Source: Pseudomonadota bacterium (GTDB taxonomy: Bacteria; Desulfobacterota; Desulfobacteria; Desulfobacterales; ETH-SRB1). From it: DNA of 35,129 nucleotides. Positions 4,026-34,962 of the stretch are shown here, in pieces. The stretch covers positions 1 through 35,129 of the forward strand of contig JAHIKR010000064.1 of assembly GCA_018897415.1 (NCBI GenBank), in the 5' to 3' direction. The position numbers and the translations under genes are program-made. Within the stretch, counting starts at the first letter, position 1. The number at the start of each line of letters is the position of its first letter. The notes below the pieces were generated by a model. The model was not told where the DNA came from. It worked only from the letters and a program-made list of their open reading frames with translations, and ran no database searches.

Positions 4026-4192
4026 GAGACCTTTGCAAAACGCCCCCTTTTGCCCAATTAGCGCTATAAAGCTTCACTAAAGTGCCTGTGTCAGACTCAA
4101 ATTTTAAGCCTCGAAATACTCAATGTATTCCTACAGTTAAAATTTTCGCCTTCCTTGAACTTGAACAAAATTGAGCATTTTTCAAAGGTCTC
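4026..4192 (+). mobile_element. MITE-like element A (167 bp): terminal inverted repeats GAGACCTTTG(C/A)AAAA and a 5-bp target-site duplication AGATT
   Basis: The ends gagacctttgcaaaa / ttttcaaaggtctc match at 14 of 15 positions as an inverted repeat. The flanking pentamers 4021-4025 and 4193-4197 are both AGATT. A near-identical copy lies inverted at 34796-34962. Confidence 0.85.
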
Positions 4193-4381
4193 AGATTATT
4201 ATACTTGACATTGGTTAAAATATATGTTCAATCTATGAACGTTTAGAAACTGAACACTTGAAGATGATTATTAATTCCCATAAATATCTTTACGTTAAGA
4301 CTTGTCGATTTCATGTAACCCACCAAGCGGAGCTATGCTCTATGTCTAAAAGTTAGCTCTAATTTCTCCCCATTAAATCTT

Positions 4382-4529
4382 GATGAATTCGTAAAAAGGC
4401 AAATTCATCATGTTAAGTGTTAAGTTTTAGGTGTTAAGTTCTGGAATTATATTGTTATAACAAATGCTTAAATCTTAAAACCTAAAACTTAAAACGTTTG
4501 TAAAAATCTGATTTTCAGACTTTTTACGA
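4382..4529. repeat. Long imperfect palindrome / structured repeat upstream of the regulator gene
   Basis: Outer arms tcgtaaaaag (4389-4398) / ctttttacga (4520-4529). Inner arms taagttttaggt / acctaaaactta. Local hairpins gatgaatt...aattcatc (4382-4409) and gtaaaaatctga-ttt-tcagactttttac (about 4499-4527). Confidence 0.6.
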
Positions 4530-4556
4530 GATTGTCAATCTTAACCTGTCACTATT

Positions 4557-5138
4557 ATGGATCATAAAGACATACGGACATTAAAACTCCTTGAAGAGAT
4601 CGAGAAAGACTATTTTCCGAGCCAGAGAGAACTCGCCAGGAAGTTGAATATTTCGCTGGGGCTTGTTAATTCATTTGTCAAGCGCCTTTCTCACAAAGGT
4701 TACTTCAAGATTACAACTATTCCTAAGAATAGGGTAAAATATATACTTATGCCAGAAGGAGCTGTTGAAAAAACAAGGCTGACATATCAGTATATCCAGT
4801 ATTCTTATAATTTTTACAAGGATGCCCGCCACAAACTCCGCAAACTTTATAAAGGACTTGAGGCAGAGGGAGTCAGACATATAGTTTTTTATGGGGCAAG
4901 CGATTTAGCTGAAATCGCATACATCTCTTTGCAGGAGACATCCATTGAAATGGTTGCCGTTGTAGATATGTTAAAGGCAGGGAAACAATTTTTGGGGAAA
5001 TTAGTTTTAGATCCTGTTAATCTTAACTCACTTTCATTTGACAGAATCCTTATTACCACAATTGAATCAAGAGAAAAAAATTTAGATGATATTATAGAAA
5101 ATGGAGTGCCCGATAGCAAGATAGTTACTATTGAATAA
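4557..5138 (+). CDS. EPS-associated MarR-type winged-helix regulator with an extra Rossmann-like C-terminal domain
   Basis: The N-terminus (SQRELARKLNISLGLVNSFVKRLSHKGYFKI...KYILMPEGAVEKTRLT) fits the EPS-locus MarR pattern as I recall it. The C-terminal roughly 90 aa (IVFYGASDLAEIAY...) looks like a small nucleotide/CoA-binding fold. Confidence 0.65.
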   Translation: MDHKDIRTLKLLEEIEKDYFPSQRELARKLNISLGLVNSFVKRLSHKGYFKITTIPKNRVKYILMPEGAVEKTRLTYQYIQYSYNFYKDARHKLRKLYKGLEAEGVRHIVFYGASDLAEIAYISLQETSIEMVAVVDMLKAGKQFLGKLVLDPVNLNSLSFDRILITTIESREKNLDDIIENGVPDSKIVTIE

Positions 5139-5247
5139 AGAGGGAAAAAATATATTATTCGTTATTCTTGAGGGATGGGAAGGGATAAAGGTACTAAGAG
5201 CAATTGAGAAGATTTGTTAAGGACGTGAATCATAGAGAGGGATTATC

Positions 5248-6288
5248 ATGTTAAACGATAAAACAATTTTGATTACCGGGGGAACTGGGTCATTGGGGAA
5301 AAAAATGACCCACATTATTTTGGAGAATTATACACCTGAAAAGCTTATTATCTTCAGCAGGGATGAGCTTAAGCAGTTTGAGATGTCTCAAAGATGGAGT
5401 ATGAAAAAGTATCCATGTATCCGCTATTTTCTGGGTGATGTAAGGGATAAGGATAGGCTCATTAGAGCTTTTAATGGTGTTGATTATGTCATTCATGCTG
5501 CAGCGCTTAAACAGGTTCCTGCGGCTGAGTATAATCCTGCAGAATGTATTAAAACAAACATATATGGTGCAATGAATGTTATTGATGCTGCACTTTTTAA
5601 CAATGTAAAGAAAGTCGTGGCCTTATCCACTGATAAAGCCTGCAATCCTATTAACTTATATGGAGCAACAAAGTTATGTTCAGATAAATTGTTTGTTGCA
5701 GCCAATGTCTATAGAGGATTTGATAAGGAGACAAGTTTTGCTGTCGTACGTTATGGTAATGTGCTTGGTAGTCGTGGCTCAGTGGTTCCATTTTTTAAGG
5801 AACGTTCTAAGACAGGCGTGCTTCCTATTACTGACCCCGACATGACACGCTTTTGGATTACCCTTGACCAGGCAGCTCATTTTGTACTCAAGGTTTTAGA
5901 ATTAGCAAAAGGGGGAGAAATCTTCGTTCCCAAGATTCCTTCCATGAAAATTACAGATCTGGCCAAAGCAATAGCTCCCGAGTGTTCACATAAAACCGTA
6001 GGTATTCGTCCTGGCGAGAAAATTCATGAAACCCTTATCGGAGAAGATGAAGGACGTAATGCTATAGAATATAAAGATTGTTACGTAGTAAGACAAGACC
6101 ACTTTGATGCTGAGAAAAGGCTCGATATCAATAATGGCGGCCGATCATGTCCAAAAGGATTTAGATATAGATCAGATAATAATCCTGAAAGATTAAGTAT
6201 TGAAGAATTAAAACAGACCTTAGAGCAAATCTCTGATGACTATAGTATTGAAAAAACACGTTGGTCAATGGACGATATTCCGCAATAA
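5248..6288 (+). CDS. pseB: UDP-N-acetylglucosamine 4,6-dehydratase, PseB/FlaA1 type (short soluble CapD-like SDR)
   Basis: 346 aa with N-terminal KTILITGGTGSLGKK. The catalytic block LSTDKACNPINLYGATKLCSDKLF has a Tyr-containing YGATK rather than the CapE/FnlA Met variant. Also has RYGNVLGSRGSVVP. Confidence 0.8.
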   Translation: MLNDKTILITGGTGSLGKKMTHIILENYTPEKLIIFSRDELKQFEMSQRWSMKKYPCIRYFLGDVRDKDRLIRAFNGVDYVIHAAALKQVPAAEYNPAECIKTNIYGAMNVIDAALFNNVKKVVALSTDKACNPINLYGATKLCSDKLFVAANVYRGFDKETSFAVVRYGNVLGSRGSVVPFFKERSKTGVLPITDPDMTRFWITLDQAAHFVLKVLELAKGGEIFVPKIPSMKITDLAKAIAPECSHKTVGIRPGEKIHETLIGEDEGRNAIEYKDCYVVRQDHFDAEKRLDINNGGRSCPKGFRYRSDNNPERLSIEELKQTLEQISDDYSIEKTRWSMDDIPQ

Positions 6289-6377
6289 GGAAGTAGTTCT
6301 TAGATTATTGTACCATGATACAAAAATAAATATTCAATGAAAAGTAATAAAATAAAGCGGTTGCTCAGAGGTAACTA

Positions 6378-7694
6378 ATGAAAATAGCAAAAAGTTTGAA
6401 GATGCAGAAGCGGGCAAGAAACAGGATACCCGGCATGACCCAATTGCTGTCAAAGCGTCCCGACATGTTTTCTTCAGGAGCTTGGCCAGGATATTATAGC
6501 AGAGCAAAAGGAGTAGAGATATGGGATTTGGATGGTAATCGGTATATAGATATGAGCCTTTCGGGCATCGGTACATGTATTCTTGGCTATGCCGATCCGG
6601 ACGTAAATCGAGCTGTCAAAGCTGCAATTGACGCAGGTTCAATGTCCACTTTGAATTGTCCCGAAGAAGTAGAGCTAGCAGATCTTCTTTGTAAGTTACA
6701 TCCCTGGGCCGAAATGGCCCGCTTCGCCCGTACGGGAGGCGAGGCAATGGCAATTGCCGTAAGGATAGCTCGTGCATATACTGGTAAGGACAAAATTGCC
6801 TTTTGCGGCTACCACGGGTGGCATGACTGGTATTTGGCTGCTAATTTAGGTACTGAAAATGCTTTAGGGGAACACCTCCTGACAGGGTTGAATCCAACTG
6901 GAGTCCCCAAAGGTTTAACGGGCACAGCTATTCCATTTCGCTACAATCATCTTGAAGAACTGCAAGCTATAGTTGAGAAAAACAGAAAAGACATAGCTGC
7001 TATCATTATGGAACCCATTCGCAATGTCCAACCACAACCCGGTTTTCTGGAAGGGGTAAGAGCTTTAGCTGACGAGATAGGAGCAGTCTTTATCATTGAT
7101 GAAATATCTGCTGCATTCAGAATGAACTCAGGGGGGGCACATCTTGTTTTTGGTATTTTACCCGATGTTGCGGTATTTTCCAAAGCATTGGGGAATGGCT
7201 ATCCAATAGCAGCTATAATAGGGAAGAGCCAGGTCATGGAAGCTGCTCAAAGCACATTTATTAGTAGCACTATGTGGACGGAACGTATAGGCCCTGCCGC
7301 AGCCTTGGCTACCATCAAGAAACATAAAGCTGTTGATGCAGGCAAGCACCTTATGGCTGTCGGAAAACAGATACAAGAAGGATGGACTCGTCTGGCGAAA
7401 AAGAATAACTTGAAAATAGATATTGGCGGGATCCCGCCACTCAGCCATTTTTCTTTTGAATATGATAATGCGCTATCAATGAAGGCTTTATTTGTTCAAT
7501 TGATGCTTGAACTGGGTTTTTTGGCATCGAATCTTTTTTATGCAATGTATGCCCACACAGAAGACCATGTAAGAAGCTATCTTGAAGGAGTTGATAAATC
7601 ATTTGAAAAAATAGCGCGCTCAATTGAGCACAACGATATCGATAAAAAACTCATTGGAGAACCTTCCAGTATCGGCTTTAAAAGACTTGCATAA
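6378..7694 (+). CDS. Class-III PLP aminotransferase (glutamate-1-semialdehyde 2,1-aminomutase-like)
   Basis: 438 aa with motifs ARFARTGGEAMAIAVRIARAYTG, IIDEISAAFR and FSKALGNGYP (candidate PLP lysine). These are typical of the HemL-like class-III family. Confidence 0.8.
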   Translation: MKIAKSLKMQKRARNRIPGMTQLLSKRPDMFSSGAWPGYYSRAKGVEIWDLDGNRYIDMSLSGIGTCILGYADPDVNRAVKAAIDAGSMSTLNCPEEVELADLLCKLHPWAEMARFARTGGEAMAIAVRIARAYTGKDKIAFCGYHGWHDWYLAANLGTENALGEHLLTGLNPTGVPKGLTGTAIPFRYNHLEELQAIVEKNRKDIAAIIMEPIRNVQPQPGFLEGVRALADEIGAVFIIDEISAAFRMNSGGAHLVFGILPDVAVFSKALGNGYPIAAIIGKSQVMEAAQSTFISSTMWTERIGPAAALATIKKHKAVDAGKHLMAVGKQIQEGWTRLAKKNNLKIDIGGIPPLSHFSFEYDNALSMKALFVQLMLELGFLASNLFYAMYAHTEDHVRSYLEGVDKSFEKIARSIEHNDIDKKLIGEPSSIGFKRLA

Positions 7695-7825
7695 CATGTT
7701 ATCATAAAAACTGATAAAAAAATCAAACCGATGCCAGAGAAAACTTTTATAATCAAAATTATTGAAAATGTTTTATCTGACGAGGAGTGGGTAACCCTTG
7801 TTGATGCCCTTAAGGCGATTTTGCA

Positions 7826-8146
7826 ATGGACAAAAAAAGCAAAGATTTGATGGATTTTATTTCCGGGGCTATTGATCACTTAGATGTGAGCGGCTTTGAA
7901 GCGCTTGAAATTCTGGATGTTCGTAGTCGTCTTGCATCAAGGGAGCCTCTTCTTGATGAGCAGGACAGGGCGCGTCTGGAAAGATTGGACCGCCAGTTGC
8001 TGCAAATGGCAGATTCTCTAATAGAATGTATCTCAGAAGTTGCGAATCTGGCAGAAATGCGGAGAAGAGCACATATTCTTCCATCTCATTGGTGGTGGTA
8101 TCTGGATGGAATTACTTCTGACAACCGCAAGGTCGCCGAAGGATAG
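7826..8146 (+). CDS. Hypothetical protein (contains the SHWWWYLD motif)
   Basis: 106-aa ORF with protein-like composition. No family was recognised. An upstream overlapping 39-codon ORF (7731-7850) would fuse to it with +1 A in the A7 tract at 7832-7838. Confidence 0.4.
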   Translation: MDKKSKDLMDFISGAIDHLDVSGFEALEILDVRSRLASREPLLDEQDRARLERLDRQLLQMADSLIECISEVANLAEMRRRAHILPSHWWWYLDGITSDNRKVAEG

Positions 8147-8173
8147 CAGCTATGCTCCAAGCTCTTGCCTCTT

Positions 8174-8203
8174 CACTTAAAACTTAATCACTTAAAACTA
8201 AAA
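8174..8203 (+). repeat. Two units of the 15-bp motif CACTTAAAACTTAAT
   Basis: cacttaaaacttaat cacttaaaactaaaa. The same unit is tandemly repeated at 9000-9059, and the surrounding sequence (8161-8218) is also homologous to 8986-9075. Confidence 0.8.
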
Positions 8204-8296
8204 ACTATGCTTTCTTCCGGTAGGCTGAGGGTCAAAAAATGGAAATTAGTCTGAAAGCGTGTTGCAAGTCATATTTGCAAATGATAAACGGGATTT

Positions 8297-8608
8297 GTGA
8301 TGAAGGAAGTTAAGTTTACAGTAATGCTGACGCGAGAGGACAGATACCGCCACCACCATGTACGATTTAGAAAAGACGTTCTCAGTTTTGTCGTACAATA
8401 TGAGACAAAGGTGGAAGAAAAATGGCTTCCAGTCGTAAGATATGATACAAGGCATGGCTTTGCTCATCGGGATCTTTTGGATAAAAAGGGCGAAAAACAA
8501 AAGACGCCTATTCTTGCCGAAGACTACAGCGAGGCCCTGACATTTGCTGAATACGATATCAAATCTAATTGGAAAATGTACAAACAGCATTTCATGGTAG
8601 GAGGTTAG
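8297..8608 (+). CDS. Small hypothetical protein, first gene of a tightly coupled pair
   Basis: 103-aa ORF whose stop lies 1 nt before the next ATG. The motif VVRYDTRHGFAHRD is faintly reminiscent of the RYDN..HH motif of TumE/DUF6516-type toxins; this is unverified. Confidence 0.55.
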   Translation: MMKEVKFTVMLTREDRYRHHHVRFRKDVLSFVVQYETKVEEKWLPVVRYDTRHGFAHRDLLDKKGEKQKTPILAEDYSEALTFAEYDIKSNWKMYKQHFMVGG

Positions 8609-8609
8609 C

Positions 8610-8903
8610 ATGGAGACACGAGAAAACGAGTTCTTTACCAGGAATTCCGAATTAAGTATGGAGTTCAGCAAATATGTTTTGGAACATCCCGAGATGGACG
8701 ACCTGCTGACAGAAGAAGCGGTAGTTGTGTTCCTGCCAGAATTTGATGCAGAACTGGCGGATTTCAACTCAAGAATGGCAAAGGAAATTGAAGGTGAAGG
8801 CGGCAGGGTGCTTTATGTGAAGGTGAAACAGATGGCCCCGAAGATCTTTTCCAGGCTGATGGGGGTTGAAGTTGGAGTTGCACGGTCACAACTTGAACAT
8901 TGA
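8610..8903 (+). CDS. Small acidic hypothetical protein, second gene of the coupled pair
   Basis: 97-aa ORF starting 1 nt after the stop of the previous ORF, which implies translational coupling. No family was recognised with confidence. Confidence 0.55.
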   Translation: METRENEFFTRNSELSMEFSKYVLEHPEMDDLLTEEAVVVFLPEFDAELADFNSRMAKEIEGEGGRVLYVKVKQMAPKIFSRLMGVEVGVARSQLEH

Positions 8904-8999
8904 GTACTGGTTCCATGATCTTTCACGGCTTACCGCAGATTTCTGTGCGGAAGCATCTTTTTGCTTCCAAGGCTGGATGTCTTTGGCTCTCTTCCTCTT

Positions 9000-9059
9000 G
9001 CCTTAAAACTTAATCACTTAAAACTTAATCACTTAAAACTTAATCACTTAAAACTTAAC
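9000..9059 (+). repeat. Tandem repeat, 4 x 15 bp (CACTTAAAACTTAAT), ending 3 nt before the aldo/keto reductase ATG
   Basis: gccttaaaacttaat / cacttaaaacttaat / cacttaaaacttaat / cacttaaaacttaac, read directly from the sequence. Confidence 0.9.
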
Positions 9060-9062
9060 ACT

Positions 9063-9956
9063 ATGTTCTTTCCTCATCTTGTCTTAGGCACAGCGCAACT
9101 TGGTCTTCCCTATGGCTTAGCCAACAAGGTAGGGCAACCTGACCAGGCTGTTGCAATTACTATAATCCGTGAAGCTTGGAAAAATGGGATTAGGGAATTT
9201 GATACAGCTCAGGCATATGGGGACAGCGAAAAGGTTTTGGGGAAGGCTCTTTACGAATTGGGCATATCAAGCGAAGCAAAAATCATAACTAAATTCCATC
9301 CGAATTTGGATCATCTGAACGCTTCAGATATGTCGAGAGCCTTGGATGAATCTCTCGAAAGGCTTAGGGTCCGAAGTCTTTATGGTATTATGCTGCACAG
9401 GGAGGAAATGCTTTCCTTATGGAATAAAGGTTTAGCGAAAATTCTTCATGCCTTTATTTTGTCCGGTAGAGTTGAAAAAATAGGTATCTCCGTCTATTCA
9501 CCAGATAAAGCTATACAGGCTTTAAACACCGAAGGTATCAGTATGGTTCAACTTCCGACCAATATCGTGGATAGAAGATTTGAAAATACAGGCGTATTTA
9601 AGCTATCAGATGAAAAGAAAAAACAGATTTACATCAGAAGCGTTTTTCTTCAGGGGCTGCTACTAATGAATCCGGAAGAAATTTCGGATAAAATGTCATT
9701 TGTCAGGCCAATAATTAAAGAAATACAAACGATTTCAAATAATATTGGATTGTCACAGCAGGAAATAGCGCTGGGTTACGTGAAATCAGAGATGCCAAAC
9801 GCTCATGTGGTTTTTGGCGCAGAATCTTCTGAGCAGGTAAAGAGCAATATAGCCTGTTGGAGAAAAAACATTCAACAGAATCTGGTTGATATGATTAAAC
9901 GTAAATTTGATGATATTGACGAAGTTATTTTGAATCCTAATTTATGGCCAAAATGA
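9063..9956 (+). CDS. Aldo/keto reductase
   Basis: From the ATG at 9063 the protein reads MFFPHLVLGTAQLGLPYG...REFDTAQAYGDSEKVLGKAL, a typical AKR N-terminus. The ORF-track start at 8961 (TTG) would translate the 15-bp tandem repeat and is unlikely. Confidence 0.8.
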   Translation: MFFPHLVLGTAQLGLPYGLANKVGQPDQAVAITIIREAWKNGIREFDTAQAYGDSEKVLGKALYELGISSEAKIITKFHPNLDHLNASDMSRALDESLERLRVRSLYGIMLHREEMLSLWNKGLAKILHAFILSGRVEKIGISVYSPDKAIQALNTEGISMVQLPTNIVDRRFENTGVFKLSDEKKKQIYIRSVFLQGLLLMNPEEISDKMSFVRPIIKEIQTISNNIGLSQQEIALGYVKSEMPNAHVVFGAESSEQVKSNIACWRKNIQQNLVDMIKRKFDDIDEVILNPNLWPK

Positions 9957-20838: not shown

Positions 20839-22821
20839 ATGAAATTGGATTTTTTGTGCAAGATGAAAAACAAAAGAATCTTTTTTGAGAAAGTATCTTT
20901 TATCCATTATCCTCTCTTATTCTATTATTTATGGAGAGGATATGATATATATGTATTTGATTTTACATATAATATGAAAAAATCCAAATTATTACGATCT
21001 CTTATAAATAGAGAAAAGGTTATACGGATTTATATTAAATCCAGTACAAAAGAACATGGACTCGCAATTGATCAAACAGAAGTCATTTACAACCACCTTA
21101 AAAATGAAAAGATAATACGGATATTATCCGATCTTTATAAAACTACAGAAACGGACTTAGCTTTCAAAAAAATATTATTAAATGAGGTATTTAAACATAT
21201 TTATATAAACCAATATCTAAGCGATGAGGAGAAAGAACAAAAAGATTCTTTTGATATATTCTTTGTTCCTCATAATTACAATTTTTATGGGAAAATAATT
21301 AAAGATTACGGTAATTATAATATGAGGCCACTAAGAAAAATAAAAATAAATAAGTGGTTTTCATATATTTTCCCCTTTGTCGAAAGTTACGATAAACTTA
21401 AATGGCGTTTGGTGGCATTGTTTTATATTTTCCCAAAGATAGCATTGTTGTTCTTAGCAAGATTGTGTGCAGCGAAATCTTCATCGAAAGCCCACTTTAA
21501 GTATGCCATTCCCATAGATCAAATATTTCAGATTAAGTTCAATGGCAAAAGAAGCTTTGATTTTCTATTAGATTATGAAGAGATTAATAAAAAAAATACG
21601 ATTTTTATTCTCAACTATGCAGTTGATAAAGATTGGTTGGCTGAGCAGAAAGAAAAGGGATATTATTTTTTGAACACAAAAAATAATTTTAATATTCATC
21701 AGATGACAAAATTTCATTTGTCGGGCAAGTTATTACGCCTTACTTTTATGAGCCTAGTAAAAATGCTATTTGCAAGCACTTCTCACGTGCCATTTTTAAT
21801 TTGCTTCGTATATGGGATGAACATTTTTATTAAATGGAATATAATTTTTAATCAAATTTCCGCTGAAAATTATGTGTATACAAATCAAGAGGGAGTTGCC
21901 CAAATATTGATCAATATTCTTGTCGCAAAACATGGTGGGGCAACCTGGAATTATTCTTCATTCATTGGCGGAGGATTGCTTTATTCTAGGGACAATGATT
22001 TTAATGATTGCAGACATATCCTTTGGGCTTTTCTTAATAGTGATCACTTTCTGGCGGTAAACCGGGATGTTGTTAAGTATTATAGACTGCATCATCAGAA
22101 AATCCGCAATTATCATATCATAGGCAATATTTATTCTGAGATGGTTCGAGAGGAAATGGGAAAAATTAATAAGAAGGAATTCATTATCCAGTATTATCAT
22201 AGGCATTTTGCCAATAATATGAAAATTGTCGTTTACCTTGATACAACTTTTGTCGATGATGACAATGTATTTACTTCTTATGATGACGCAATAGCATCCT
22301 ATCAAGATATGCTTAGATTGCTCGATGAGCGAGAAGAACTTTTAATGATAGTTAAACCTTCCAAGAATGAGGATTTTTTTATCTCACCTTTAAGACAATG
22401 GTCTTCACCTGAAAAAGGAAAAATAATTATCGGCCTGTGGGAAAGTCTTAAGACTCATGAAAGAGTGTATTGGGCGGGCCACGCAGGTGATCTTCCTAAA
22501 ATTATGGCGATTAGCGACCTCGTTATCACGCATTGTATGTCTTCGCCCACGGTTGAAGCCCTTGGAGCAAGAAAAAAAGCCTTCTGGTATGAATCAGGTG
22601 ATAAGCATAGGGGGCTTGCATATGATAAAATTCCACAATTAGTGATTCATGGATACCATGATTTGAAAAAAAGAATTGAATATCTTTTATATGAAATTAA
22701 TGATGATGAATATGATGAATATTTGAACAAAAATATTAAATCCAAGATTGAATACCAACTTGATGGATTAGCTTTAACAAGATTTCGAAAGTTAATCTGC
22801 GCTGAAAAGAATAATCATTAA
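20839..22821 (+). CDS. Large orphan protein with a GT-B-like C-terminal half (candidate acidic-sugar transferase)
   Basis: 660 aa, very AT-rich and Lys/Asn/Ile/Tyr-rich, with a few hydrophobic segments. The C-terminal pattern is LMIVKPSK ... ISDLVITHCMSSPTVEALGARKKAFWYE. Confidence 0.55.
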   Translation: MKLDFLCKMKNKRIFFEKVSFIHYPLLFYYLWRGYDIYVFDFTYNMKKSKLLRSLINREKVIRIYIKSSTKEHGLAIDQTEVIYNHLKNEKIIRILSDLYKTTETDLAFKKILLNEVFKHIYINQYLSDEEKEQKDSFDIFFVPHNYNFYGKIIKDYGNYNMRPLRKIKINKWFSYIFPFVESYDKLKWRLVALFYIFPKIALLFLARLCAAKSSSKAHFKYAIPIDQIFQIKFNGKRSFDFLLDYEEINKKNTIFILNYAVDKDWLAEQKEKGYYFLNTKNNFNIHQMTKFHLSGKLLRLTFMSLVKMLFASTSHVPFLICFVYGMNIFIKWNIIFNQISAENYVYTNQEGVAQILINILVAKHGGATWNYSSFIGGGLLYSRDNDFNDCRHILWAFLNSDHFLAVNRDVVKYYRLHHQKIRNYHIIGNIYSEMVREEMGKINKKEFIIQYYHRHFANNMKIVVYLDTTFVDDDNVFTSYDDAIASYQDMLRLLDEREELLMIVKPSKNEDFFISPLRQWSSPEKGKIIIGLWESLKTHERVYWAGHAGDLPKIMAISDLVITHCMSSPTVEALGARKKAFWYESGDKHRGLAYDKIPQLVIHGYHDLKKRIEYLLYEINDDEYDEYLNKNIKSKIEYQLDGLALTRFRKLICAEKNNH

Positions 22822-22839: not shown

Positions 22840-24324
22840 GTGGCAACTAAAGAACAGCAGATAAAAAACAGTTTTATCTATCTATTGCCCATCATAATTA
22901 GTAATCTACTCCCTTTTATTACATTGCCGATATTTACCAGAATCCTTACCAGGGAAGATTACGGGGTTTTGGCGTTAGCTCAGGTATATGCAATTTTTGT
23001 GACCGGTTTGGCAAATTTCGGAATGACCGTGTCTTACGACCGAAACTATTTTCAATATCGAGATAATCGCGTAGAAACGGCGAAATTATTATATTCCACT
23101 CTCCTCTTTGTAATGTTGAATTTTCTTTTTCTCGCTGGTTTGACTTATTTATTCAAGGGAACTCTCTCAAAGCTCATTATAGGATCTGCTGAACATGCGA
23201 ACATTATGTTCTGGGCGTTTTGTGCACAGTTTTTCAGTAGCGTGAGCTATTACTACTTGGCTTATTTTAAAAACTCCGAATCAGCAAAAAAGTTTGTTGT
23301 TTATACAATCACAGGTAGTCTTATTGCCATTATCATTTCTCTTTATCTGGTAGTTTATCTGCGTATCGGTGTTATTGGAATTGTATATGCGCAGTTGTGC
23401 TCTGGAACCTTAGTTTTTGCTATATTAACTTATAAATTTACAAATATTTTTTCCATTACATTTAGCAAACCGATATTTGTTGAGTCGCTGAAAATAAGTT
23501 ATCCCTTAACACCCAGGATATTTTTGGGTGTTATAGGCTCACAATTTGATAAATACATGATCGGTTTGTTGGCCTCAGTCGGGGGGGTCGGAATATATAG
23601 TATTGGTCAGAAAGTAGCATATGTTACATTTAGTTATATGACGGCGTTGGAAAACGTCTATGCGCCGCAGGTATATAAAAAAATGTTTGATCTTGGGGAT
23701 AAGGGCGGTGAAGCAGTGGGACCGTACCTTACTCCGTTTTTTTATATATCAATTTTGGTTGCGCTGATGATTTCCTTATTTTCTCAAGAGGTTATTACAA
23801 TTTTGACTCCAAGCTCGTATCATGAAGCCATAGATATAGTTACAGTTTTATCTATGCTATATGGGTCGTATTTTTTCGGAAAACAGCCTCAGCTTATCTT
23901 TGCAAAGAAAACATGGATGACCTCTGCTCTTACTCTGGTAAATATTACTCTCAACATTGCGATAAATATCCCGTTCATTATAAAATGGGGAGCCATTGGC
24001 GCTGCCTGGGCTACGCTTACCGCAGGAGTGATCTCCTGTTCGATTTCCTTTGCTATTTCGCAGCACTACTACCGAATCAGGTGGGAGTATGGAAATCTGG
24101 CATACATCTTCTTGACCTTTTTTGGATTTTCAATCCTTATTATATTATTGAGGGACATGAATGCCGCATACTCGGTGCTTTTGGGTGTGAAGATAATTGC
24201 TGTTATGATTTATGTCTTGATCGGTGTAAAAATAAGAGTGATTACTATGAAAAACTGGATGCTCGTGAAGGATATGCTTTTCAACTTAAAGACACGTTCG
24301 CTATTGGGAAATTCTCAATCTTGA
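22840..24324 (+). CDS. wzx: Wzx-type oligosaccharide flippase (MOP superfamily polysaccharide biosynthesis protein)
   Basis: 494 aa with about 12-14 hydrophobic helices and a Wzx-like N-terminus (SFIYLLPIIISNLLPFITLPIFTRILTREDYG). GTG start. Confidence 0.75.
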   Translation: MATKEQQIKNSFIYLLPIIISNLLPFITLPIFTRILTREDYGVLALAQVYAIFVTGLANFGMTVSYDRNYFQYRDNRVETAKLLYSTLLFVMLNFLFLAGLTYLFKGTLSKLIIGSAEHANIMFWAFCAQFFSSVSYYYLAYFKNSESAKKFVVYTITGSLIAIIISLYLVVYLRIGVIGIVYAQLCSGTLVFAILTYKFTNIFSITFSKPIFVESLKISYPLTPRIFLGVIGSQFDKYMIGLLASVGGVGIYSIGQKVAYVTFSYMTALENVYAPQVYKKMFDLGDKGGEAVGPYLTPFFYISILVALMISLFSQEVITILTPSSYHEAIDIVTVLSMLYGSYFFGKQPQLIFAKKTWMTSALTLVNITLNIAINIPFIIKWGAIGAAWATLTAGVISCSISFAISQHYYRIRWEYGNLAYIFLTFFGFSILIILLRDMNAAYSVLLGVKIIAVMIYVLIGVKIRVITMKNWMLVKDMLFNLKTRSLLGNSQS

Positions 24325-24355
24325 GCTAATGGGATTGCTGATGAGTTCTGTTGTG
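24285..24355 (+). repeat. Direct repeat copy 1 (wzx 3' end plus the decayed start of the downstream gene)
   Basis: About 90% identical by eye to 26102-26175. The exact core cgctattgggaaattctcaatcttgag is at 24299-24325 and 26119-26145. Confidence 0.85.
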
Positions 24356-24417
24356 GAAGTAAAACGATTCTTTGAAGCCAGAATGGAGTAACATCGTAAG
24401 ACAGAAAGGGATTTATT

Positions 24418-25437
24418 GTGGATATGAATTGTAGAATATTAGCCACGTTGGGGCCGAGTTCATTGCGGCAGGATATTATCTCGCAGATTGAGAATGAATA
24501 TTTATATCTTTTTCGCATTAATCTATCACATACACCAATCGATTCATTAGCGGATATCATAAGCAAAATTCAAAGCTACACCGAAATTCCTATCTGCTTG
24601 GATTCCGAGGGAGCACAGATTCGGAATCAATCGGTGACCAATGGAAAAATATTCCTTCATAAGGATGACGCAATAAAAATCCATTTCAATGAAATTCTGG
24701 GGGATTCAAAGAATCTATCTTTTACACCTCCTAATATAGCCGAGCAGCTAACTGTGGGTGACGAGATGAGTATTGACTTCAATTCAACTCGCATCAAGAT
24801 CATTGAGAAACACATGAAATACTGTAAGGCTAAGGTAGAACATGGGGGGAAGGTTGGTAGTAACAAGGCTGCCACCCTGAACAGGGAAATTGATATGGAA
24901 GCGATTACTTCCAAAGATAAGAAGGCAATCACGATTGCGAAAGAAATGGGGATCAAATATTTTGCTTTGTCTTTTGCCGGATCAAGTGAAGACGTCAAAA
25001 CGATGCGTGAACTCGCAGGAAGAGATGCGACCATCATTTCAAAAATTGAGAGCAAGAAAGGTGTTCTTAACCTCAATGATATAATAGATGCAAGTGACGA
25101 AATTCTTATTGACCGAGGTGATTTATCCAGAGAGATTAATCTTGAGAAGATTCCATTTCTACAAAGGAGAATAATTGCAATGGCAAGATCAAAAAAAGTG
25201 CCTGTATATGTTGCCACAAATCTCCTCGAGTCAATGGTAAAAGTGCCGGAGCCCACAAGGGCGGAAATTAATGATGTGGTAAGTACATTGTTAATGGGTG
25301 CAAATGGATTGGTTCTAGCCGCTGAAACCGCCATAGGAAAATATCCTGTAAAAGCTGCAAAGATGATTAAAAAGCTCATAAGCCAAACAGAAAAGTGGAC
25401 ATCAAATACCAGTATTACAGAATTACTAGAGAGTTGA
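24418..25437 (+). CDS. Pyruvate-kinase-like enzyme lacking the C-terminal regulatory domain
   Basis: ILATLGPSS...FRINLSHT, DSEGAQIR, KIESKKG, IDRGDLSREI and PTRAEINDVVSTLLMGANGLVLAAETAIGKYPVKA match the pyruvate kinase barrel motifs. It is only 339 aa. The likely true start is the ATG at 24424 (MNCRIL). Confidence 0.75.
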   Translation: MDMNCRILATLGPSSLRQDIISQIENEYLYLFRINLSHTPIDSLADIISKIQSYTEIPICLDSEGAQIRNQSVTNGKIFLHKDDAIKIHFNEILGDSKNLSFTPPNIAEQLTVGDEMSIDFNSTRIKIIEKHMKYCKAKVEHGGKVGSNKAATLNREIDMEAITSKDKKAITIAKEMGIKYFALSFAGSSEDVKTMRELAGRDATIISKIESKKGVLNLNDIIDASDEILIDRGDLSREINLEKIPFLQRRIIAMARSKKVPVYVATNLLESMVKVPEPTRAEINDVVSTLLMGANGLVLAAETAIGKYPVKAAKMIKKLISQTEKWTSNTSITELLES

Positions 25438-25492
25438 CAAAAATAGGCAATATCAACAGTTTTTAAGAAGAACTAACTATAGGTTAATAACT

Positions 25493-26056
25493 ATGTGCCG
25501 GGTGTATAACAACGGTAATAATGTTTTTTGGATAATGGGTCCCACAGCGAGCGGTAAAACGACTTTAGCCAATATCATTCTATCAAAGTTACGGGAAAAT
25601 GATACACTGGCTATTCATTATGATGGCGATGAGGTGCGAGATTTCTTTGGTCTGAGTCTTGGCTTCGAAAAAGCGGACCGGCTGAAGGTTGTCAAGACGA
25701 TTGTTCATCTTTCAAACAAGGCCATTGATGCCGGCCTAAACGTAATTATTTCCGCTTTAACTGCTAACCAGGATGCACGGGATTATGTGATACGGAATGT
25801 GAAAAATTTAATACTTATTTATCTTGAATGTAGCATCAAAAAATGTATGCAAAGGGACACTAAGGGCCTCTACGAAAAAGCGGCAAATAAAGAAATAAAC
25901 ACCGTTATCGGTTATAATGATGAATACTTGGCGCCGGAAAATCCAGATATTATCATTAATACAGATGAGAAATCGGTTGAAAGCAGTGCTCTCGATCTTA
26001 TGGAACGACTTCGCGAGCGTGGAATTATAAAAAAACCTTTCCAGAATTTAATCTAA
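25493..26056 (+). CDS. cysC: Adenylyl-sulfate (APS) kinase family protein
   Basis: P-loop GPTASGKTT, YDGDEVR and ISALTANQDARDYV resemble the CysC motifs (GxSGSGKST, LDGDNxR, SFISP). The substrate cannot be inferred from sequence. Confidence 0.65.
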   Translation: MCRVYNNGNNVFWIMGPTASGKTTLANIILSKLRENDTLAIHYDGDEVRDFFGLSLGFEKADRLKVVKTIVHLSNKAIDAGLNVIISALTANQDARDYVIRNVKNLILIYLECSIKKCMQRDTKGLYEKAANKEINTVIGYNDEYLAPENPDIIINTDEKSVESSALDLMERLRERGIIKKPFQNLI

Positions 26057-26101
26057 ATCTTCCATTAACAACAGGCTGCTAATGAAGAACATTTTTTTAG
26101 A

Positions 26102-26175
26102 CCTAAAGATACGCTCCTCGCTATTGGGAAATTCTCAATCTTGAGTTAATGAGATCGCTGATGAGTTCTATTGTG
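26102..26175 (+). repeat. Direct repeat copy 2 (pseudo wzx 3' end plus the true start of ORF 26149)
   Basis: Reads ...LKIRSSLLGNSQS* followed by ATGAGATCGCTGATGAGTTCT. It mirrors LKTRSLLGNSQS* plus atgggattgctgatgagttct at 24285-24355. Confidence 0.85.
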
Positions 26176-28023
26176 ATTATACATAGTCTATCACGTGCAC
26201 GGCATTTCTTGAGCACTCAGCCGCGTCACTTGCTTGGCAATGGACGTTATTTGGCCTTTCCGACTTCTACTACCCTAATGGTTATCAAGTTTTTGGAAGA
26301 TCTTGGTATAAAGGCGTTTCTTCCATGCCCTATTTCTAAAGAACGGCGCGACAAATTTCTGCGTGATTATATTGATATAATGGATGTACTGGCAGATCAA
26401 AACGGTCATGAGCTGCAATGGTGGGCTACCGATCTGGCTTCAAAAAATCGTTTTACTTCTCCTCTATTTGGGCTTCTAGATGCGCTTGTACGTTGCCATG
26501 ATGCTATAGACAAGGTATCTGGACAAAGACAATTGTTAGTTCTTATCCATCCGCCCTGGCCGGTAGTGCTTTCCCTGGAAAACTCAGCCAAGATTTGTGA
26601 GTGGGACTTGAAGATTCTATCATCGCCTATTTCAAAGTACCTTGCTCGATATCGAGGCAAGGCTAAAACATGGATGAGTGTTCTTATGGGGGGTTTTTCT
26701 TCTCTCTTTCGCATTTGGGAAACAAGACGTTGCTTCGGACTAATGCATAGGAAGAAAGAAAAAAATAAGCCGATTTATTTAATAAAGAGTTTTGTATATC
26801 CTGGCTCATTTTCCAAAGATGGTCTCTTTCATGACCCTTTTTTTGGAAAACTGTCGGAATTCCTCAAAAGGTCGATAGGGGATAAGGTTGACATTCTTAC
26901 TGTAGCTGTTGGCGCAGAAAATAGGAATGAATGTTATCAACGGATGAAGTCTCTTAAAGGACAACAGGTTGTTCCGTTGGAAGCGTTTTTGAGGTATTCT
27001 GATGTCCTTAAGGCGCTTCTGCATATATGGTGGAGTTGTATTACCAAACCGTTTCGGATGGTGACCAAATTGTCTTTTCTTGGAAACGAAATTTCAGGCC
27101 TGGTAAAAGAGTGCCTTTCATCAGGTGGTTGGAGGATTAAGCTTTATCAATATTTACATTTGTTTGCTGCTGAGCAAATTGTCCGGACTTATCGGCTTTA
27201 CGCCTGTGCGTTAACATTTGAAGGGAACCCTTGGGAGCGTATGTTTGTCGAAGGACTGAGACGTCATTTTCCGGAAACGCCTATTTTTGGTTACCAGCAT
27301 TCAGTTGTCCCTCAAGCTGCTGCCGGGGTTTTTATCAGCCCGAGAGAAAAAAAATACTCCCCCTTGCCATCCATTGTATTAACCACGGGTGATGTCCCAG
27401 CCGGCATTATGCGGCATTACGGAATGTTATCCGACGATAGTATTCGGCCATCGTGCGCTTTACGTTATGACTATCTTTATAATATAAATTATAGGGAGAG
27501 TGGGGAGCAGAGTAGATTTCTTGTGCTTGTGGCCTTAGAAGGTGTTCTGGAGGTGCTTCCTCTGCTTGAATATGTGTTTGATCAGGCTCCAAAATGCTCA
27601 GATGCCATTTTCCGCATTCGCGCACATCCGGTAATGCCTTTGCCGGAAATTCTAAGTAAACTAGGCAGGAGGATAGACCCGGAGGGGAATATTGAGACTT
27701 CCTCAGGTGGGACGGTGGCCAGTGATGTAGAGAAGAGTTCTGCAATTCTCTACTGGGGGACAACCGTGGCATTAGAAGCTTTAATGATGGGGAAGCCTCT
27801 AATACACTTTGATCGGGGTGATTTGCTCAGCTATGACCCCTTGTTCGAATTTAACGATTTCAAGTGGACCGTAGGAAAAAACAAGGATCTTCACACTATT
27901 CTGGAAGAAATCCGAAACCTGCCTGATGAAAAGCATGCTGTTTTGAGTGAGATAGGAAGAAACTATATTAGTTCGTATTTTAATAAAGTTAATGAAAAAT
28001 CCATAAGCAAATTCCTTCCTTAA
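26149..28023 (+). CDS. Large orphan protein with a GT-B-like C-terminal half (candidate Kdo/NulO transferase)
   Basis: 624 aa. The pattern TFEGNPWE ... GYQHSV ... FRIRAHPV ... ILYWGTTVALEALMMGKPLIHFD recalls HP-motif sialyl/Kdo-type or capsule-synthesis GT-B enzymes. By eye the layout parallels ORF 20839. Confidence 0.55.
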   Translation: MRSLMSSIVIIHSLSRARHFLSTQPRHLLGNGRYLAFPTSTTLMVIKFLEDLGIKAFLPCPISKERRDKFLRDYIDIMDVLADQNGHELQWWATDLASKNRFTSPLFGLLDALVRCHDAIDKVSGQRQLLVLIHPPWPVVLSLENSAKICEWDLKILSSPISKYLARYRGKAKTWMSVLMGGFSSLFRIWETRRCFGLMHRKKEKNKPIYLIKSFVYPGSFSKDGLFHDPFFGKLSEFLKRSIGDKVDILTVAVGAENRNECYQRMKSLKGQQVVPLEAFLRYSDVLKALLHIWWSCITKPFRMVTKLSFLGNEISGLVKECLSSGGWRIKLYQYLHLFAAEQIVRTYRLYACALTFEGNPWERMFVEGLRRHFPETPIFGYQHSVVPQAAAGVFISPREKKYSPLPSIVLTTGDVPAGIMRHYGMLSDDSIRPSCALRYDYLYNINYRESGEQSRFLVLVALEGVLEVLPLLEYVFDQAPKCSDAIFRIRAHPVMPLPEILSKLGRRIDPEGNIETSSGGTVASDVEKSSAILYWGTTVALEALMMGKPLIHFDRGDLLSYDPLFEFNDFKWTVGKNKDLHTILEEIRNLPDEKHAVLSEIGRNYISSYFNKVNEKSISKFLP

Positions 28024-28703: not shown

Positions 28704-28712
28704 GGAGAAGAC

Positions 28713-30389: not shown

Positions 30390-30595
30390 ACAAAAAAATA
30401 TTTGTAGCCTTATCAACTTTTGCTGAGTATGGGGATGACCCGTTAAAACTTCTTGAAGAAAGCGGGTTAGAGTATTCTTTGAACTCCTTGGGCCGTCGGA
30501 TTGTCCGGGAGGAAATCATCGAGATGGGCAAAGACGCGACCTGGATTGTTGCTGGAGTTGAGCCTTACAATACCCATATGAGGAGGTATATTTAA
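30386..30595 (+). pseudogene. N-terminal fragment (about 60 aa) of a D-isomer-specific 2-hydroxyacid dehydrogenase (phosphoglycerate-dehydrogenase-like)
   Basis: KIFVALSTFAEYGDDPLKLLEESGLEYSLNSLGRRIVREEIIEMGKDATWIVAGVEPYN fits the N-terminal substrate-binding lobe of this family. The frame then ends after THMRRYI, and the NAD domain is absent. ATGA overlap with the kdsB stop. Confidence 0.5.
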
Positions 30596-30600
30596 ATCGT

Positions 30601-31995: not shown

Positions 31996-32257
31996 GGTAA
32001 TATCCTCATCCAGCCTATCCAATCCGCCGAGATTATTGTATGTAACCCGTTAGATTATTTATACTTTTTATCCTCTTCCTTAAAGAATACTACGATTATA
32101 GGTAATTATATCCTTATCATCGTTCCATATTATTTTTCCCTTGCACATTCCAGATGGTCGCTGATTGAATCGCATCTTACAAACAAATTGGAATTAGGTG
32201 ACTGACAGACAAAGCGTGATAGAATATGAGCAACATGATAACAAACGATATTGACTC

Positions 32258-33244
32258 ATGAACGATACCAGGCGAAAATATACAGGCAGGGATGTGGCCT
32301 TCATAATCCCTACAAAAGATCGCCCGGAAAAAGTTAAAAATGTTTTAGAGAGTATTGCATCACAGACAATGCTATGTGGCAGGCTAATCGTAGTAGATGG
32401 CGGGCAGAGTGTGAAAGATGTTGTGATGGGCTTTTCCGATAGTTTGCCAGTGGAATATTACGAGTGCCATCCTCCAGGCCAGATTCGTCAGAGAAATATT
32501 GGAATTTCAGTTATTGACGACCGAACACCTCTGGTCGGTTTTCTCGATGATGACATTGTATTGGAGCCGCGGGCGATAGAAGCAATGGTAGCTTTCTGGA
32601 ACAAGTGTGAACCTGATACTGCTGGTGTGTCATTTAATATTATCAATAACCCTTACAGCCATTCATGGATAAGAGCTATTATTGGTATGAGTTCACCACA
32701 ACAAGGTCAGGTGCTTCGTTCTGGATACAATGTTGCCACTTCACCTGTTGCTTCCGATTTAAAAGCCCAATGGCTGTGTGGAGGGGCGACAGTTTGGAAA
32801 AGAGAAATTCTCAGGGAGTATATTAATAAAGAGATATACGCTCGTTGGGCTATTTGTGAGGATCTTATTTTCAGCTACCCGATCGGAAAAAAATACCCCT
32901 TATATGTATGTGCTGATGCTAAGGTTAGACATGAACACGCATATGATCACATGGCTAAAATGAAGTATCGATATTATGGGCGCACTGTTACATTGTGGCG
33001 TTTATATTTTGTAGAGTCTCATATTGAACTTTCCAGAGCGTTCTATTTATGGATGTTGCTGGGTCAGATTACTGCTCGATGTATATCTGGTATCATTTCG
33101 TTTCGGGCAAGTGATATTGAATATGCTATTGGCCAGATAGAAGGTGTCGTAATTGGACTGACAGCAATACTTCGCGGTTCAAACCTCTTGTCCCTCTTGA
33201 ATGAAGATACTATTAGCAAACAAAAATGTCCCCTAAAGTCATAG
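32258..33244 (+). CDS. Glycosyltransferase family 2 (GT-A)
   Basis: VAFIIPTKDRPEKVKNVLESIASQT, VVDGG and a FLDDDIVLEP DxD motif. Confidence 0.8.
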   Translation: MNDTRRKYTGRDVAFIIPTKDRPEKVKNVLESIASQTMLCGRLIVVDGGQSVKDVVMGFSDSLPVEYYECHPPGQIRQRNIGISVIDDRTPLVGFLDDDIVLEPRAIEAMVAFWNKCEPDTAGVSFNIINNPYSHSWIRAIIGMSSPQQGQVLRSGYNVATSPVASDLKAQWLCGGATVWKREILREYINKEIYARWAICEDLIFSYPIGKKYPLYVCADAKVRHEHAYDHMAKMKYRYYGRTVTLWRLYFVESHIELSRAFYLWMLLGQITARCISGIISFRASDIEYAIGQIEGVVIGLTAILRGSNLLSLLNEDTISKQKCPLKS

Positions 33245-33261
33245 ACCACAAGCCATAAAGT

Positions 33262-33461
33262 GAGACCTTTGAAAAACGCTTCCTTTATGTCATTCCCGCG
33301 AAGCTTGTCCTCGACCCGATCGGGGAGCGGGAATCTATAACTGATTGAGAATGCTTGTCCTCGACCTGATCGGGGACTGGATTCCCGTTTTCACGGGAAT
33401 GACGATCTTGTCCTCGACCTGATCGGGGATTAGACTATTTCTGGCAAAATTCAAAGGTCTC
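33262..33461 (+). mobile_element. MITE-like element C (200 bp): same terminal repeats as elements A and B, different interior, TSD AAAGT
   Basis: The ends gagacctttgaa / ttcaaaggtctc form a perfect 12-bp inverted repeat. The flanking pentamers 33257-33261 and 33462-33466 are both AAAGT. The interior holds 3 copies of cttgtcctcgacc(c/t)gatcgggga (33303, 33353, 33406) and attcccg...cgggaat hairpins. Confidence 0.8.
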
Positions 33462-33503
33462 AAAGTATATGACATAGTGAGTAAAACCATTACGGATATT
33501 GAG

Positions 33504-34724
33504 ATGAAGCGTAAGATAAAGATAGTGCAAATCATGGCTCGTCTTAACATAGGGGGGGCTGCGATCCAGGCCATACTCCTCACGCAAGGTCTTGATCCTA
33601 ATCAATTCCAATCAGTTCTCGTTACTGGAAAAGTCTCAGCAAGTGAGGGGGATATGATCTACCTCGCTGATACGTATGGTGTAAAGCCGATCATCATTTC
33701 CAATCTTCAGAGAGATATTGGTATTCTTAATGATGTTAAAGCATTCTTGTGCGTTTTAAGGATCTTGAATAGAGAGAAACCGGATATTGTCCACACACAC
33801 ACAGCAAAGGCCGGCACAATCGGCAGGATAGCGACTTTTATCCACAACTTAGTTAATAGAGACAGAATTCGTGTTGTTCATACCTTTCATGGACATGTAT
33901 TTCACGGCTATTTTAGTAACATAATGTCAACAATGGTTATATTTACCGAGCGTATCCTATCGAAAATTACTGATATCATTATTGCCACAAGTGAAAGCCA
34001 GAAGAAAGAACTTGTATGTAATTACCGGATTGCACAGGCAAGCAAAGTCAGGGTGGTAAAACTTGGCGTTGATCTTGAGCCCTTCCTTTTATCTACACAA
34101 GAGAAAACGGCAATAGCCAAGAAAATAACCTGTCCTGCACTGAGAATTGGAATTGTTGGCAGGCTAGTTCCAATAAAGAATCACAAGATGTTTTTAGATT
34201 CAGCAAAAATTTTCCTCGAACAAAATCCATCAATTAAAGCAGCTTTTATAATTATTGGAGATGGTGAACTAAAACAAGAGCTGATTGACTATTGCCATAG
34301 GCTTGGATTGAGCGATCATGTTCAATTTTGCGGTTGGAAAAAAGAATTTTCGGAGATTTACACTAATCTTGATATAGTTGCCTTAACTTCAAACAATGAG
34401 GGAACTGCTATTGCGCTAATCGAAGCAATGGCATGTTCGGTGCCTGTTATCGCAACCAATGTCGGTGGTGTTCGGGATTTGGTGGGCAATTCGCAATTAG
34501 AGTTTATATCAGATGGCTTTAAAATATTTAAACGGGGCATTCTTTGCAGAGATAATGATGCCAAAGGATTTGCAAAAGGGATGGAATATCTGGTTAAAAA
34601 CAGGCAACTAAGTAAAGATATTGCAAAGGTTGCACAATCATTTGTTGTAGAACACTATTCAAAAGATCGTCTCCTTAGGGATATGGAATCATTTTATACC
34701 GAATTGCTAAATCAAGTCTCTTGA
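33504..34724 (+). CDS. Glycosyltransferase, GT4-like (GT-B)
   Basis: MKRKIKIVQIMARLNIGGAA N-terminus and NNEGTAIALIEAMACSVPVIATNVGGVRDLV. The alternative GTG start at 33477 begins only 16 nt after MITE C. Confidence 0.8.
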   Translation: MKRKIKIVQIMARLNIGGAAIQAILLTQGLDPNQFQSVLVTGKVSASEGDMIYLADTYGVKPIIISNLQRDIGILNDVKAFLCVLRILNREKPDIVHTHTAKAGTIGRIATFIHNLVNRDRIRVVHTFHGHVFHGYFSNIMSTMVIFTERILSKITDIIIATSESQKKELVCNYRIAQASKVRVVKLGVDLEPFLLSTQEKTAIAKKITCPALRIGIVGRLVPIKNHKMFLDSAKIFLEQNPSIKAAFIIIGDGELKQELIDYCHRLGLSDHVQFCGWKKEFSEIYTNLDIVALTSNNEGTAIALIEAMACSVPVIATNVGGVRDLVGNSQLEFISDGFKIFKRGILCRDNDAKGFAKGMEYLVKNRQLSKDIAKVAQSFVVEHYSKDRLLRDMESFYTELLNQVS

Positions 34725-34795
34725 AGCCAAAGCATTTCTCTTTTCAGGTCACTAACGAAATCCACTGCTATGGCCTTCAGCATATAACAGTGATA

Positions 34796-34962
34796 GAGAC
34801 CTTTGAAAAATGTTCAATTTTGTTCAAGTTCAAGGAAGGCGAAAATTTTAAATGCAGGAATACATTGAGTATTTCGAGGCTTAAAATTTGAGTCTGACAC
34901 AGGCACTTTAGTGAAGCTTTATAGCGCTAATTGGGCAAAAGGGGGCGTTTTGCAAAGGTCTC
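34796..34962 (-). mobile_element. MITE-like element B (167 bp), an inverted copy of element A, TSD TGATA
   Basis: Identical to the reverse complement of 4026-4192 at 164 of 167 positions by manual alignment. The flanking pentamers 34791-34795 and 34963-34967 are both TGATA. Confidence 0.85.

Follow-up and report, generated by a model that had tools for sequence, protein, structure and literature searches.

Inverted near-identical elements in a Desulfobacterales glycan locus as probable independent insertions of an IS5-type miniature inverted-repeat transposable element

A stretch of 35,129 nt from a Desulfobacterales assembly (GCA_018897415.1, contig JAHIKR010000064.1; hereafter the window) was analyzed for two near-identical 167-bp elements, A (4026 to 4192, + strand) and B (34796 to 34962, - strand, inverted relative to A), which lie on either side of a 30.6-kb block of glycan genes. 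A and B are best explained as independent insertions of a non-autonomous transposable element of the miniature inverted-repeat kind (MITE), with a third copy, C (33262 to 33461, 200 bp), inside the operon; a probability of about 0.9 was assigned to this reading. An earlier note on this DNA had offered three explanations for the pair: inversion of the operon, exchange of cassettes by way of the elements, or independent insertion at operon ends. The last was borne out by the separate target-site duplications, by empty sites in related strains (L129 for A; L152 for B and C) and by membership of a widespread multi-copy family, and the note's suggestion of recent insertion was also supported.

The coordinates of the inverted pair were reproduced by repeat search and direct comparison. 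A and B were the single long inverted pair returned for the window (167 nt, 98% complementary, 30,603 nt apart). Compared base by base, A and the reverse complement of B were identical at 164 of 167 positions (mismatches at element positions 108, 111 and 150), with uninterrupted identity of up to 107 nt. Each has its own terminal inverted repeats of 15-17 nt (GAGACCTTTGMAAAA). A stands in the orientation of the parent insertion sequence (IS), with left end GAGACCTTTGCAAAAC and, as the reverse complement, right end GAGACCTTTGAAAAATG. A and B each carry the motif GAGACCTTTG(C/A)AAAA at their two termini; C carries the GAGACCTTTG core at its two, reading GAGACCTTTG...CAAAGGTCTC. The 15-nt end motif was matched 5 times in the window (0.27 expected), the fifth match belonging to C; the pair described by the earlier note is thus real, and the third element with the same termini had been missed.

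Flanks were compared for target-site duplications. Perfect 5-bp direct repeats, different in each case, flank A (AGATT; 4021 to 4025 on the left, 4193-4197 on the right), B (TGATA; 34791 to 34795 and 34963-34967) and C (AAAGT; 33257-33261 and 33462-33466). Because these duplications differ, the three elements were taken as separate insertions and not as duplicated border sequence. The only open reading frame (ORF) of at least 80 amino acids (aa) that overlaps any of A, B and C is an 82-aa one on the reverse strand across C (33335-33583), and it is spurious. Also dropped was a mini-ORF in B (MQEYIEYFEA), since it is conserved neither in A nor in the family consensus. Promoter and terminator scans found no sigma-70-like promoter and no intrinsic-terminator-like site inside A or B. 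Small size, terminal repeats, individual duplications and the lack of any real ORF give A, B and C the anatomy of MITEs. C is located in the gap separating the GT2 gene from the GT4 gene. Its interior is made up of a 28-nt unit (CTTGTCCTCGACCTGATCGGGGA) repeated three times within hairpins, and a single copy of the unit was also seen in a MITE of a Syntrophales metagenome-assembled genome (MAG; L056).

A begins 54 nt past the stop codon of a CapD/PglF-like polysaccharide biosynthesis gene (2080 to 3972, + strand; Pfam Polysacc_synt_2, 404 bits), and B begins 72 nt past the last GT4 gene (ORF end 34724) and ends 12 nt before the stop codon of a convergent gene, distances that agree with those first reported. 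The elements had been described as marking the exact borders of the operon. B does lie past the last gene of the block. As the glycan locus also takes in the CapD-like gene on the left side of A, A is inside the locus and not at its border.

Filled and empty sites were compared between related strains. In L129 (JGI 3300015048), which has 1 mismatch in 1576 nt against the window (99.9%), position 4025 is joined straight to 4193 with a single AGATT, and this is a precise empty site for A. L152, a stretch of a 44.5-kb contig from a related strain with GT2 and GT4 genes 92-94% identical to those of the window, has neither B nor C. At the site of B it reads CAGTGATAATAATGTATCC, the expected empty site plus an extra ATA, and so is not exactly precise. 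The whole of A was present at the same site and 100% identical in six contigs (L001/L125, L002, L003/L137, L004, L126 and L157). B is known only from the contig that holds the window; that it has a perfect target duplication and private sequence variants speaks against an error of assembly.

The same contigs were used to weigh the proposal that RecA-mediated recombination between A and B flips the 30.6-kb block and so couples it to, or uncouples it from, read-through from the upstream dehydratase gene. Inverted arms of 167 nt with 107 nt of unbroken identity make homologous recombination physically possible, and several contigs break in or beside A and B, as assembly ambiguity would look (seven begin or end inside or within 30 nt of A, or just before B). 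Such breaks are, however, expected at any 167-bp repeat that is present in many copies. Recombination between A and B would also exchange their inner flanks; since neither target duplication is broken, what the window shows is the original, uninverted arrangement. The left junction is crossed or abutted by nine contigs from at least six samples (the window, L001/L125, L002, L003/L137, L004, L126, L127, L128 and L157). All nine run into the uninverted flank, and their element copies are of pure A type with no A/B chimeras, although these are consensus assemblies, which a rare inverted subpopulation could escape. No recombinase or invertase family was found among the 30 window ORFs scanned with Pfam. 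The gap between the CapD-like gene and the helix-turn-helix (HTH) gene that opens the block measures 412 nt without A, and the first block gene therefore probably has its own promoter. Inversion as a switch of the operon was considered very improbable.

Invertible phase switches of polysaccharide loci are known from Bacteroides fragilis, in which capsule promoters are flipped by the Mpi invertase. Such switches have repeats of tens of nucleotides, a promoter of a few hundred bp and a dedicated site-specific recombinase. Inverted repeats are associated with a surface-glycan locus here as well, but they are transposon copies 30.6 kb apart, with no recombinase found and one orientation seen.

Variation of the cassette itself was mapped by comparison with the window. 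L157 (compared with window 1-5786) shows no difference from ~250 to 4750, A included, past which it diverges by 10-28%; the breakpoint (~4750-5000) falls within the HTH gene, 560-800 nt rightward of A. In L127, identity is 96% as far as 6291, past which its genes differ. L152 (compared with window 32279-35129) has different genes upstream of GT2, 92-94% identity across GT2 and GT4, and 100% identity over 165 nt to the right of the B site. L124 (contig JAKLQD010000251.1) has 1 mismatch in 11.3 kb and departs from the window at 34768, 28 nt before B, and L138 departs at the stop codon of the convergent gene. The 137-nt tail that ends contig JAKLQD010000251.1 (L124 11292-11428) is unrelated to the window and had no match among the sequences compared; it could be another insertion or a structural or strain variant at the 3' end of the operon.

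Cassette polymorphism is therefore real at this locus (L157, L127, L152), as it would be if A and B were conserved flanks by which whole cassettes are exchanged between strains by homologous recombination. The breakpoints nevertheless lie outside the elements: in the HTH gene at ~4750-5000, at 6291, at 34768 and at the ends of flanking genes, including the convergent gene's stop codon, with none in A or B. The alternative right junctions (L152, L138 and L124) are all without B. The element is also present at dozens of unrelated loci. The homology is supplied by conserved flanking genes and not by the MITEs. Conserved flanking genes usually supply the homology for exchange at surface-glycan loci. 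The steps in divergence in L157 and L152 are recombination tracts whose ends fall in genes flanking the glycan locus. The locus behaves as an ordinary hypervariable one that recombines in its conserved flanks. A role for A and B as portable homology handles was rated highly unlikely.

A third possibility is that A and B form the ends of a 30.9-kb composite transposon that was moved, or can be moved, as a whole by an IS5 transposase. Each MITE offers transposase-binding ends in either orientation, and MITE pairs around large segments that act like composite transposons are documented, namely NFM2-type MITEs that flank class 1 integrons and MITE-297 on both sides of a 76-kb mer region in pA297-3 (PMC6382973). 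As in those pairs, near-identical MITEs are found here on either side of a multi-gene block. The NFM2 and MITE-297 structures are described as comparable to composite transposons (PMC6382973), whereas A and B have their own duplications and are present or absent independently of each other. The outer flanks (AGATT left of A, TGATA right of B) share no duplication, and as there is a separate one around each element, the block did not come in as a single piece. A occurs where B does not, or is missing, regardless of cassette type, and in relatives without B the CapD-like and convergent genes on the two sides are continuous with the locus. Transposition of the whole block by way of A and B was judged improbable in the extreme.

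Independent MITE insertion was further assessed from the spread of the family. A census of its ends was made with an exact 18-nt motif in species-representative genomes. The end motif was found at more than 119 loci, a lower bound, nearly all of them in Desulfobacterales, Desulfobacteraceae or Syntrophales MAGs among the matches listed. The usual form of the family is 142 bp, to which A and B add a 25-nt module in one arm (element positions 35-59). Variants of ~190 bp (L051 950-1137, L081 5922-6109) carry the module in both arms as reverse complements; the module would lengthen the hairpin of the element symmetrically in these copies and one-sidedly in A and B. Among 52 full-length copies, 5-bp duplications were perfect in 27 and had one mismatch in 15, and the duplicated sequences were T- and A-rich. 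The 167-bp subfamily was searched in JGI metagenome contigs with a subfamily-specific 20-mer, which gave 24 contigs; these amount to no fewer than 13 separate sites of insertion in metagenomes that carry the present locus, and a single metagenome accounts for ~11 of the sites. B differs by 2 nt from the copy in L141/L145/L147 and by 3 nt from A. As B is nearer to an unlinked copy than to A, the low divergence is a property of the family or of a young subfamily and not of the A/B pair, and the ongoing gene conversion proposed earlier is unneeded.

Genes beside the copies were examined for a bias towards glycan loci. The 124 proteins encoded there matched 213 Pfam families, none of them dominant; the commonest were ABC transporters, methyltransferases, TPR, Lon, LeuA, ETF and PAS domains. 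The epimerase families RmlD_sub_bind, Epimerase and GDP_Man_Dehyd had 2 members each. No glycosyltransferase family reached 2 members, and the enrichment at glycan loci that the earlier note had entertained was absent among the 124 proteins. The element had no match in the plasmid collection, and Rfam returned nothing at gathering threshold in the window; sub-threshold Rfam matches to plant miRNA-precursor hairpins were dismissed. Three matches to viral contigs were due to chance, falling within genes on G+C-rich contigs that have no relation to the MITE. No published description of this MITE family was found.

Its ends and its relatives identify the family as an IS5-derived MITE. A 1333-bp IS with MITE-like ends (L030) encodes a 368-aa IS5 transposase (NF033581, 235 bits against a cut-off of 140; DDE_Tnp_1 and DUF772). 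Related elements of 1.44-1.53 kb were found in Desulfosarcina widdelii, D. alkanivorans and metagenome contigs, which together with L030 gives a range of 1.33-1.53 kb, all with GAGACCTTTGCA ends. The left end of the 1.44-1.53 kb relatives (GAGACCTTTGCACAAC) agrees with the MITE at 14-15 of 16 positions and the right end reads GAGACCTTTGAAAAT; the asymmetry between left and right ends is common to these relatives and the MITE. The D. widdelii copy (1529 bp) has a 5-bp duplication (ACAAC/ACAAC) and a left end that matches the MITE at 15 of 16 positions. Terminal repeats of the IS5-family elements ISNme1 (GAGACCTTTGCAAAA) and ISPg1 (GAGACCATTGCA) are given in Table 2 of PMC4596501, in which the BrickBuilt MITE of Porphyromonas gingivalis is tabulated alongside. 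A disrupted IS5 homologue was found in L143, from the related sample Ga0180007 (Ga0180xxx series, as are the metagenomes that carry the locus); the closest protein-database homologues of this fragment are split or N-terminal ORFs. Candidates for an autonomous copy among the end-motif loci were set aside. Solo ends adjoin common housekeeping genes (NtrC-type regulators, SerS, LeuA, CO dehydrogenase and others), not transposases, and pairs of ends 0.7-3 kb apart were rejected as full IS because they are neighbouring MITEs.

By the proposed mechanism, the element would be an internally deleted derivative of a Desulfobacterales IS5-family insertion sequence. It encodes nothing itself and would be moved in trans by the DDE transposase of the IS, which presumably acts in this genome as well. 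The transposase would recognise the GAGACCTTTG(C/A)AAAA ends and make a staggered 5-bp cut, usually in A+T-rich intergenic DNA, which would leave the 5-bp direct duplication. The placement of A and B at operon ends is explained by the tolerance of insertions in non-coding gaps together with local clustering of family copies, and their inverted orientation would be the outcome of a coin flip.

Local clustering was seen elsewhere, with three copies in 5 kb (L131) and four in 14 kb (L144). These clusters adjoin housekeeping genes too, as in L131 and in L144, which lies beside Lon and has nearby ORFs syntenic with L089 and L142. A and B may themselves be sister copies that arose by local hopping.

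Several observations weigh against the reading of A and B as independent MITE insertions. T62 and T64 are common to A and B and were not seen in other 167-bp copies, which suggests a sister relationship and would also fit partial gene conversion. Three copies in 35 kb, and a fourth family copy ~1.5 kb to the right of the B site, past the window, in L152 and L138, look denser than the subfamily count predicts for an assumed genome of ~5 Mb; some regional insertion preference is likely. Three of three independent full-length IS are in glycan clusters, and the IS lineage may be biased towards such loci. This glycan setting (n=3, small) contrasts with the lack of glycan enrichment among the neighbours of the MITE. 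An intact autonomous copy was not found in the source population, whose MAGs were not searched as whole genomes. The three full-length IS5-type relatives lie in polysaccharide clusters at L158 2824-4352, L160 2810-4248 and L162 2824-4259 (see also L163), surrounded by genes for GT2, GT4, Wzy_C, a sulfotransferase and a DegT-type aminotransferase.

Similar MITEs were compared. BrickBuilt and MITEPgRS of P. gingivalis (parents ISPg1/ISPg4) and ISNme1 of Neisseria are IS5-derived or of the IS5 family and have GAGACCTTTGCA ends as here, and the ISNme1 end (GAGACCTTTGCAAAA) is identical to the left end of A (PMC4596501). Like BrickBuilt and MITEPgRS, the present family is non-coding, intergenic and multi-copy, with filled and empty sites between strains (PMC4596501). 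Some copies have internal repeat arrays, a 23-nt minisatellite in BrickBuilt (PMC4596501) and the three 28-nt units in C. The host differs, being Desulfobacterales and not Bacteroidota or Neisseria, and the interiors are unrelated. The duplication is a consistent 5 bp here and 2-5 nt in BrickBuilt (PMC4596501), and the 142-bp core (94% mean column identity) is far more uniform across species than the BrickBuilt type.

Folding of the family was examined in an alignment of 26 142-bp copies, drawn from 25 contigs and no fewer than 22 MAGs, in which mean column identity was 94%. The whole element folds as one long hairpin, and in every one of the 26 copies one strand gives a much stronger fold than its complement (mean -59 vs -38.5 kcal/mol). 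At B the strongly folding strand (~ -56 kcal/mol) is the + strand of the window and the sense strand of the operon; A is in the minority orientation. The strong-strand consensus has 52 pairs, with 98.4% of cells paired. Compensatory changes were found in 10 pairs, a number reached in 0 of 500 shuffles, and slid controls gave 0-4. Six conserved wobble pairs on the strong strand (five U·G, one G·U) are C·A mismatches on the other. One-sided changes that preserve pairing numbered 32 cells on the strong strand and 7 on the other, cell counts that overstate independent events because the copies are related. At 22 of 28 de-duplicated sites between co-directional genes the strong strand was the sense strand (binomial p = 0.004, with crude gene calls).

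The strand-specific hairpin and its orientation bias suggest an RNA-level effect, by analogy with ERIC and Correia elements. Transcribed in one orientation, the MITE may fold into an extended RNA hairpin and so influence how stable neighbouring transcripts are or how their 3' ends form; B, in this orientation 72 nt past the last gene, would in that case serve as a 3' hairpin or as an insulator separating convergent genes. Such a by-product would supplement MITE insertion and not displace it. It is favoured by the fold asymmetry in 26 of 26 copies, the covariation, the one-sided changes, the sense bias and the orientation of B. Against it, A is in the minority orientation, and A and B have no promoter- or terminator-like site and no Rfam family match. 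Some of the hairpin symmetry also comes with any element made of two inverted ends, the copies share ancestry, and the orientation bias could reflect the direction of replication rather than transcription. A regulatory by-product of this kind is possible and is put forward tentatively. A stronger form, in which the family (94% conserved, in many Desulfobacterales) would be a domesticated strand-specific RNA hairpin that, in the right orientation as at B, sets transcript 3' ends or stability or insulates convergent genes, with an occasional flip or mobilisation of the glycan block by A and B in a rare subpopulation in addition, was thought unlikely.

ERIC/IRU elements of enterobacteria and Correia/CREE elements of Neisseria are hairpin-forming intergenic repeats that are co-transcribed with neighbouring genes, and orientation-dependent effects on mRNA have been proposed for both. 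The present family resembles them in its length (~100-170 bp), terminal inverted repeats, whole-element hairpin, location between genes and conservation between species, and its RNA-level effect is a candidate by this likeness. Correia elements have a TA duplication and promoters, unlike the family here, with its 5-bp duplication and no sigma-70-like promoter found in A or B. The hairpin thus offers a modest lead towards ERIC- or Correia-like effects on transcripts.

The main value of the comparison is negative, in that near-identical inverted repeats resembling a switch proved to be two hits of a multi-copy transposon, with strain variation of the locus attributable to ordinary recombination in flanking genes. 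Uncultured sulfate reducers from groundwater and from marine sediments carry the family in abundance. Metagenome assemblies break at its copies in just such loci, and its insertion polymorphism provides strain-level markers.

The remaining features of the window were annotated by ORF and Pfam scans. As the earlier note had stated, the block between A and B is co-directional: all major ORFs from 4557, where it opens with the HTH regulator, to 34724 are on the + strand, and those with Pfam matches belong mostly to glycan-pathway families. Members include nonulosonic-acid-type genes (cytidylyltransferases and NeuB), a PseB/CapD-like dehydratase, an aminotransferase, a KdsA-like DAHP_synth_1 gene, enzymes of the radical SAM type, a flippase resembling Wzx, and transferases of families GT4 and GT2. 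No Pfam match whatever was obtained for two large ORFs (20839-22821 and 26149-28023). A cyanobacterial origin, entertained for the A+T-richness and small repeats of the DNA, was rejected, as no HIP1 site was found in the 35 kb window and the source records are Desulfobacteraceae or Pseudomonadota MAGs. The 3' end of the convergent gene (34975 to 35129, - strand; stop codon 34975-34977; 326 aa in L152) had no Pfam match, and its homologue in L138 shows 37-40% amino-acid identity to the window's CapD-like gene (tblastx). The window's proteins recur on Desulfobacteraceae and Pseudomonadota bacterium MAG contigs and on JGI, ENA and Logan metagenome contigs.

Other repeats were noted around small gene modules. 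A PDDEXK_3 (GxxExxY-type) gene (1550-1927) lies between 38-nt inverted repeat arms (1489-1526 and 1935-1972) and also between 31-nt direct repeats (1529-1559 and 2030-2060) that include the ribosome-binding region and ATGACTGAAA; the segment (1489-2060) looks like a ~500-bp cassette inserted directly upstream of the CapD-like gene. A DUF7718 and DUF5647 gene pair (8297-8903) lies between arrays of a 15-nt unit, CACTTAAAACTTAAT (8173-8209 and 8999-9065), both of which stop just ahead of an ATG. This segment (8173-9065) is a second small module inserted in the operon, with its gene-start region duplicated. Genes of pyruvate-kinase-barrel-like and APS-kinase type are surrounded by a 58-nt direct repeat (24298-24355 and 26118-26175, 93% identical) and a 27-nt inverted repeat (24356-24382 and 26433-26459), and the repeats at 24298-26459 suggest another inserted or duplicated segment.

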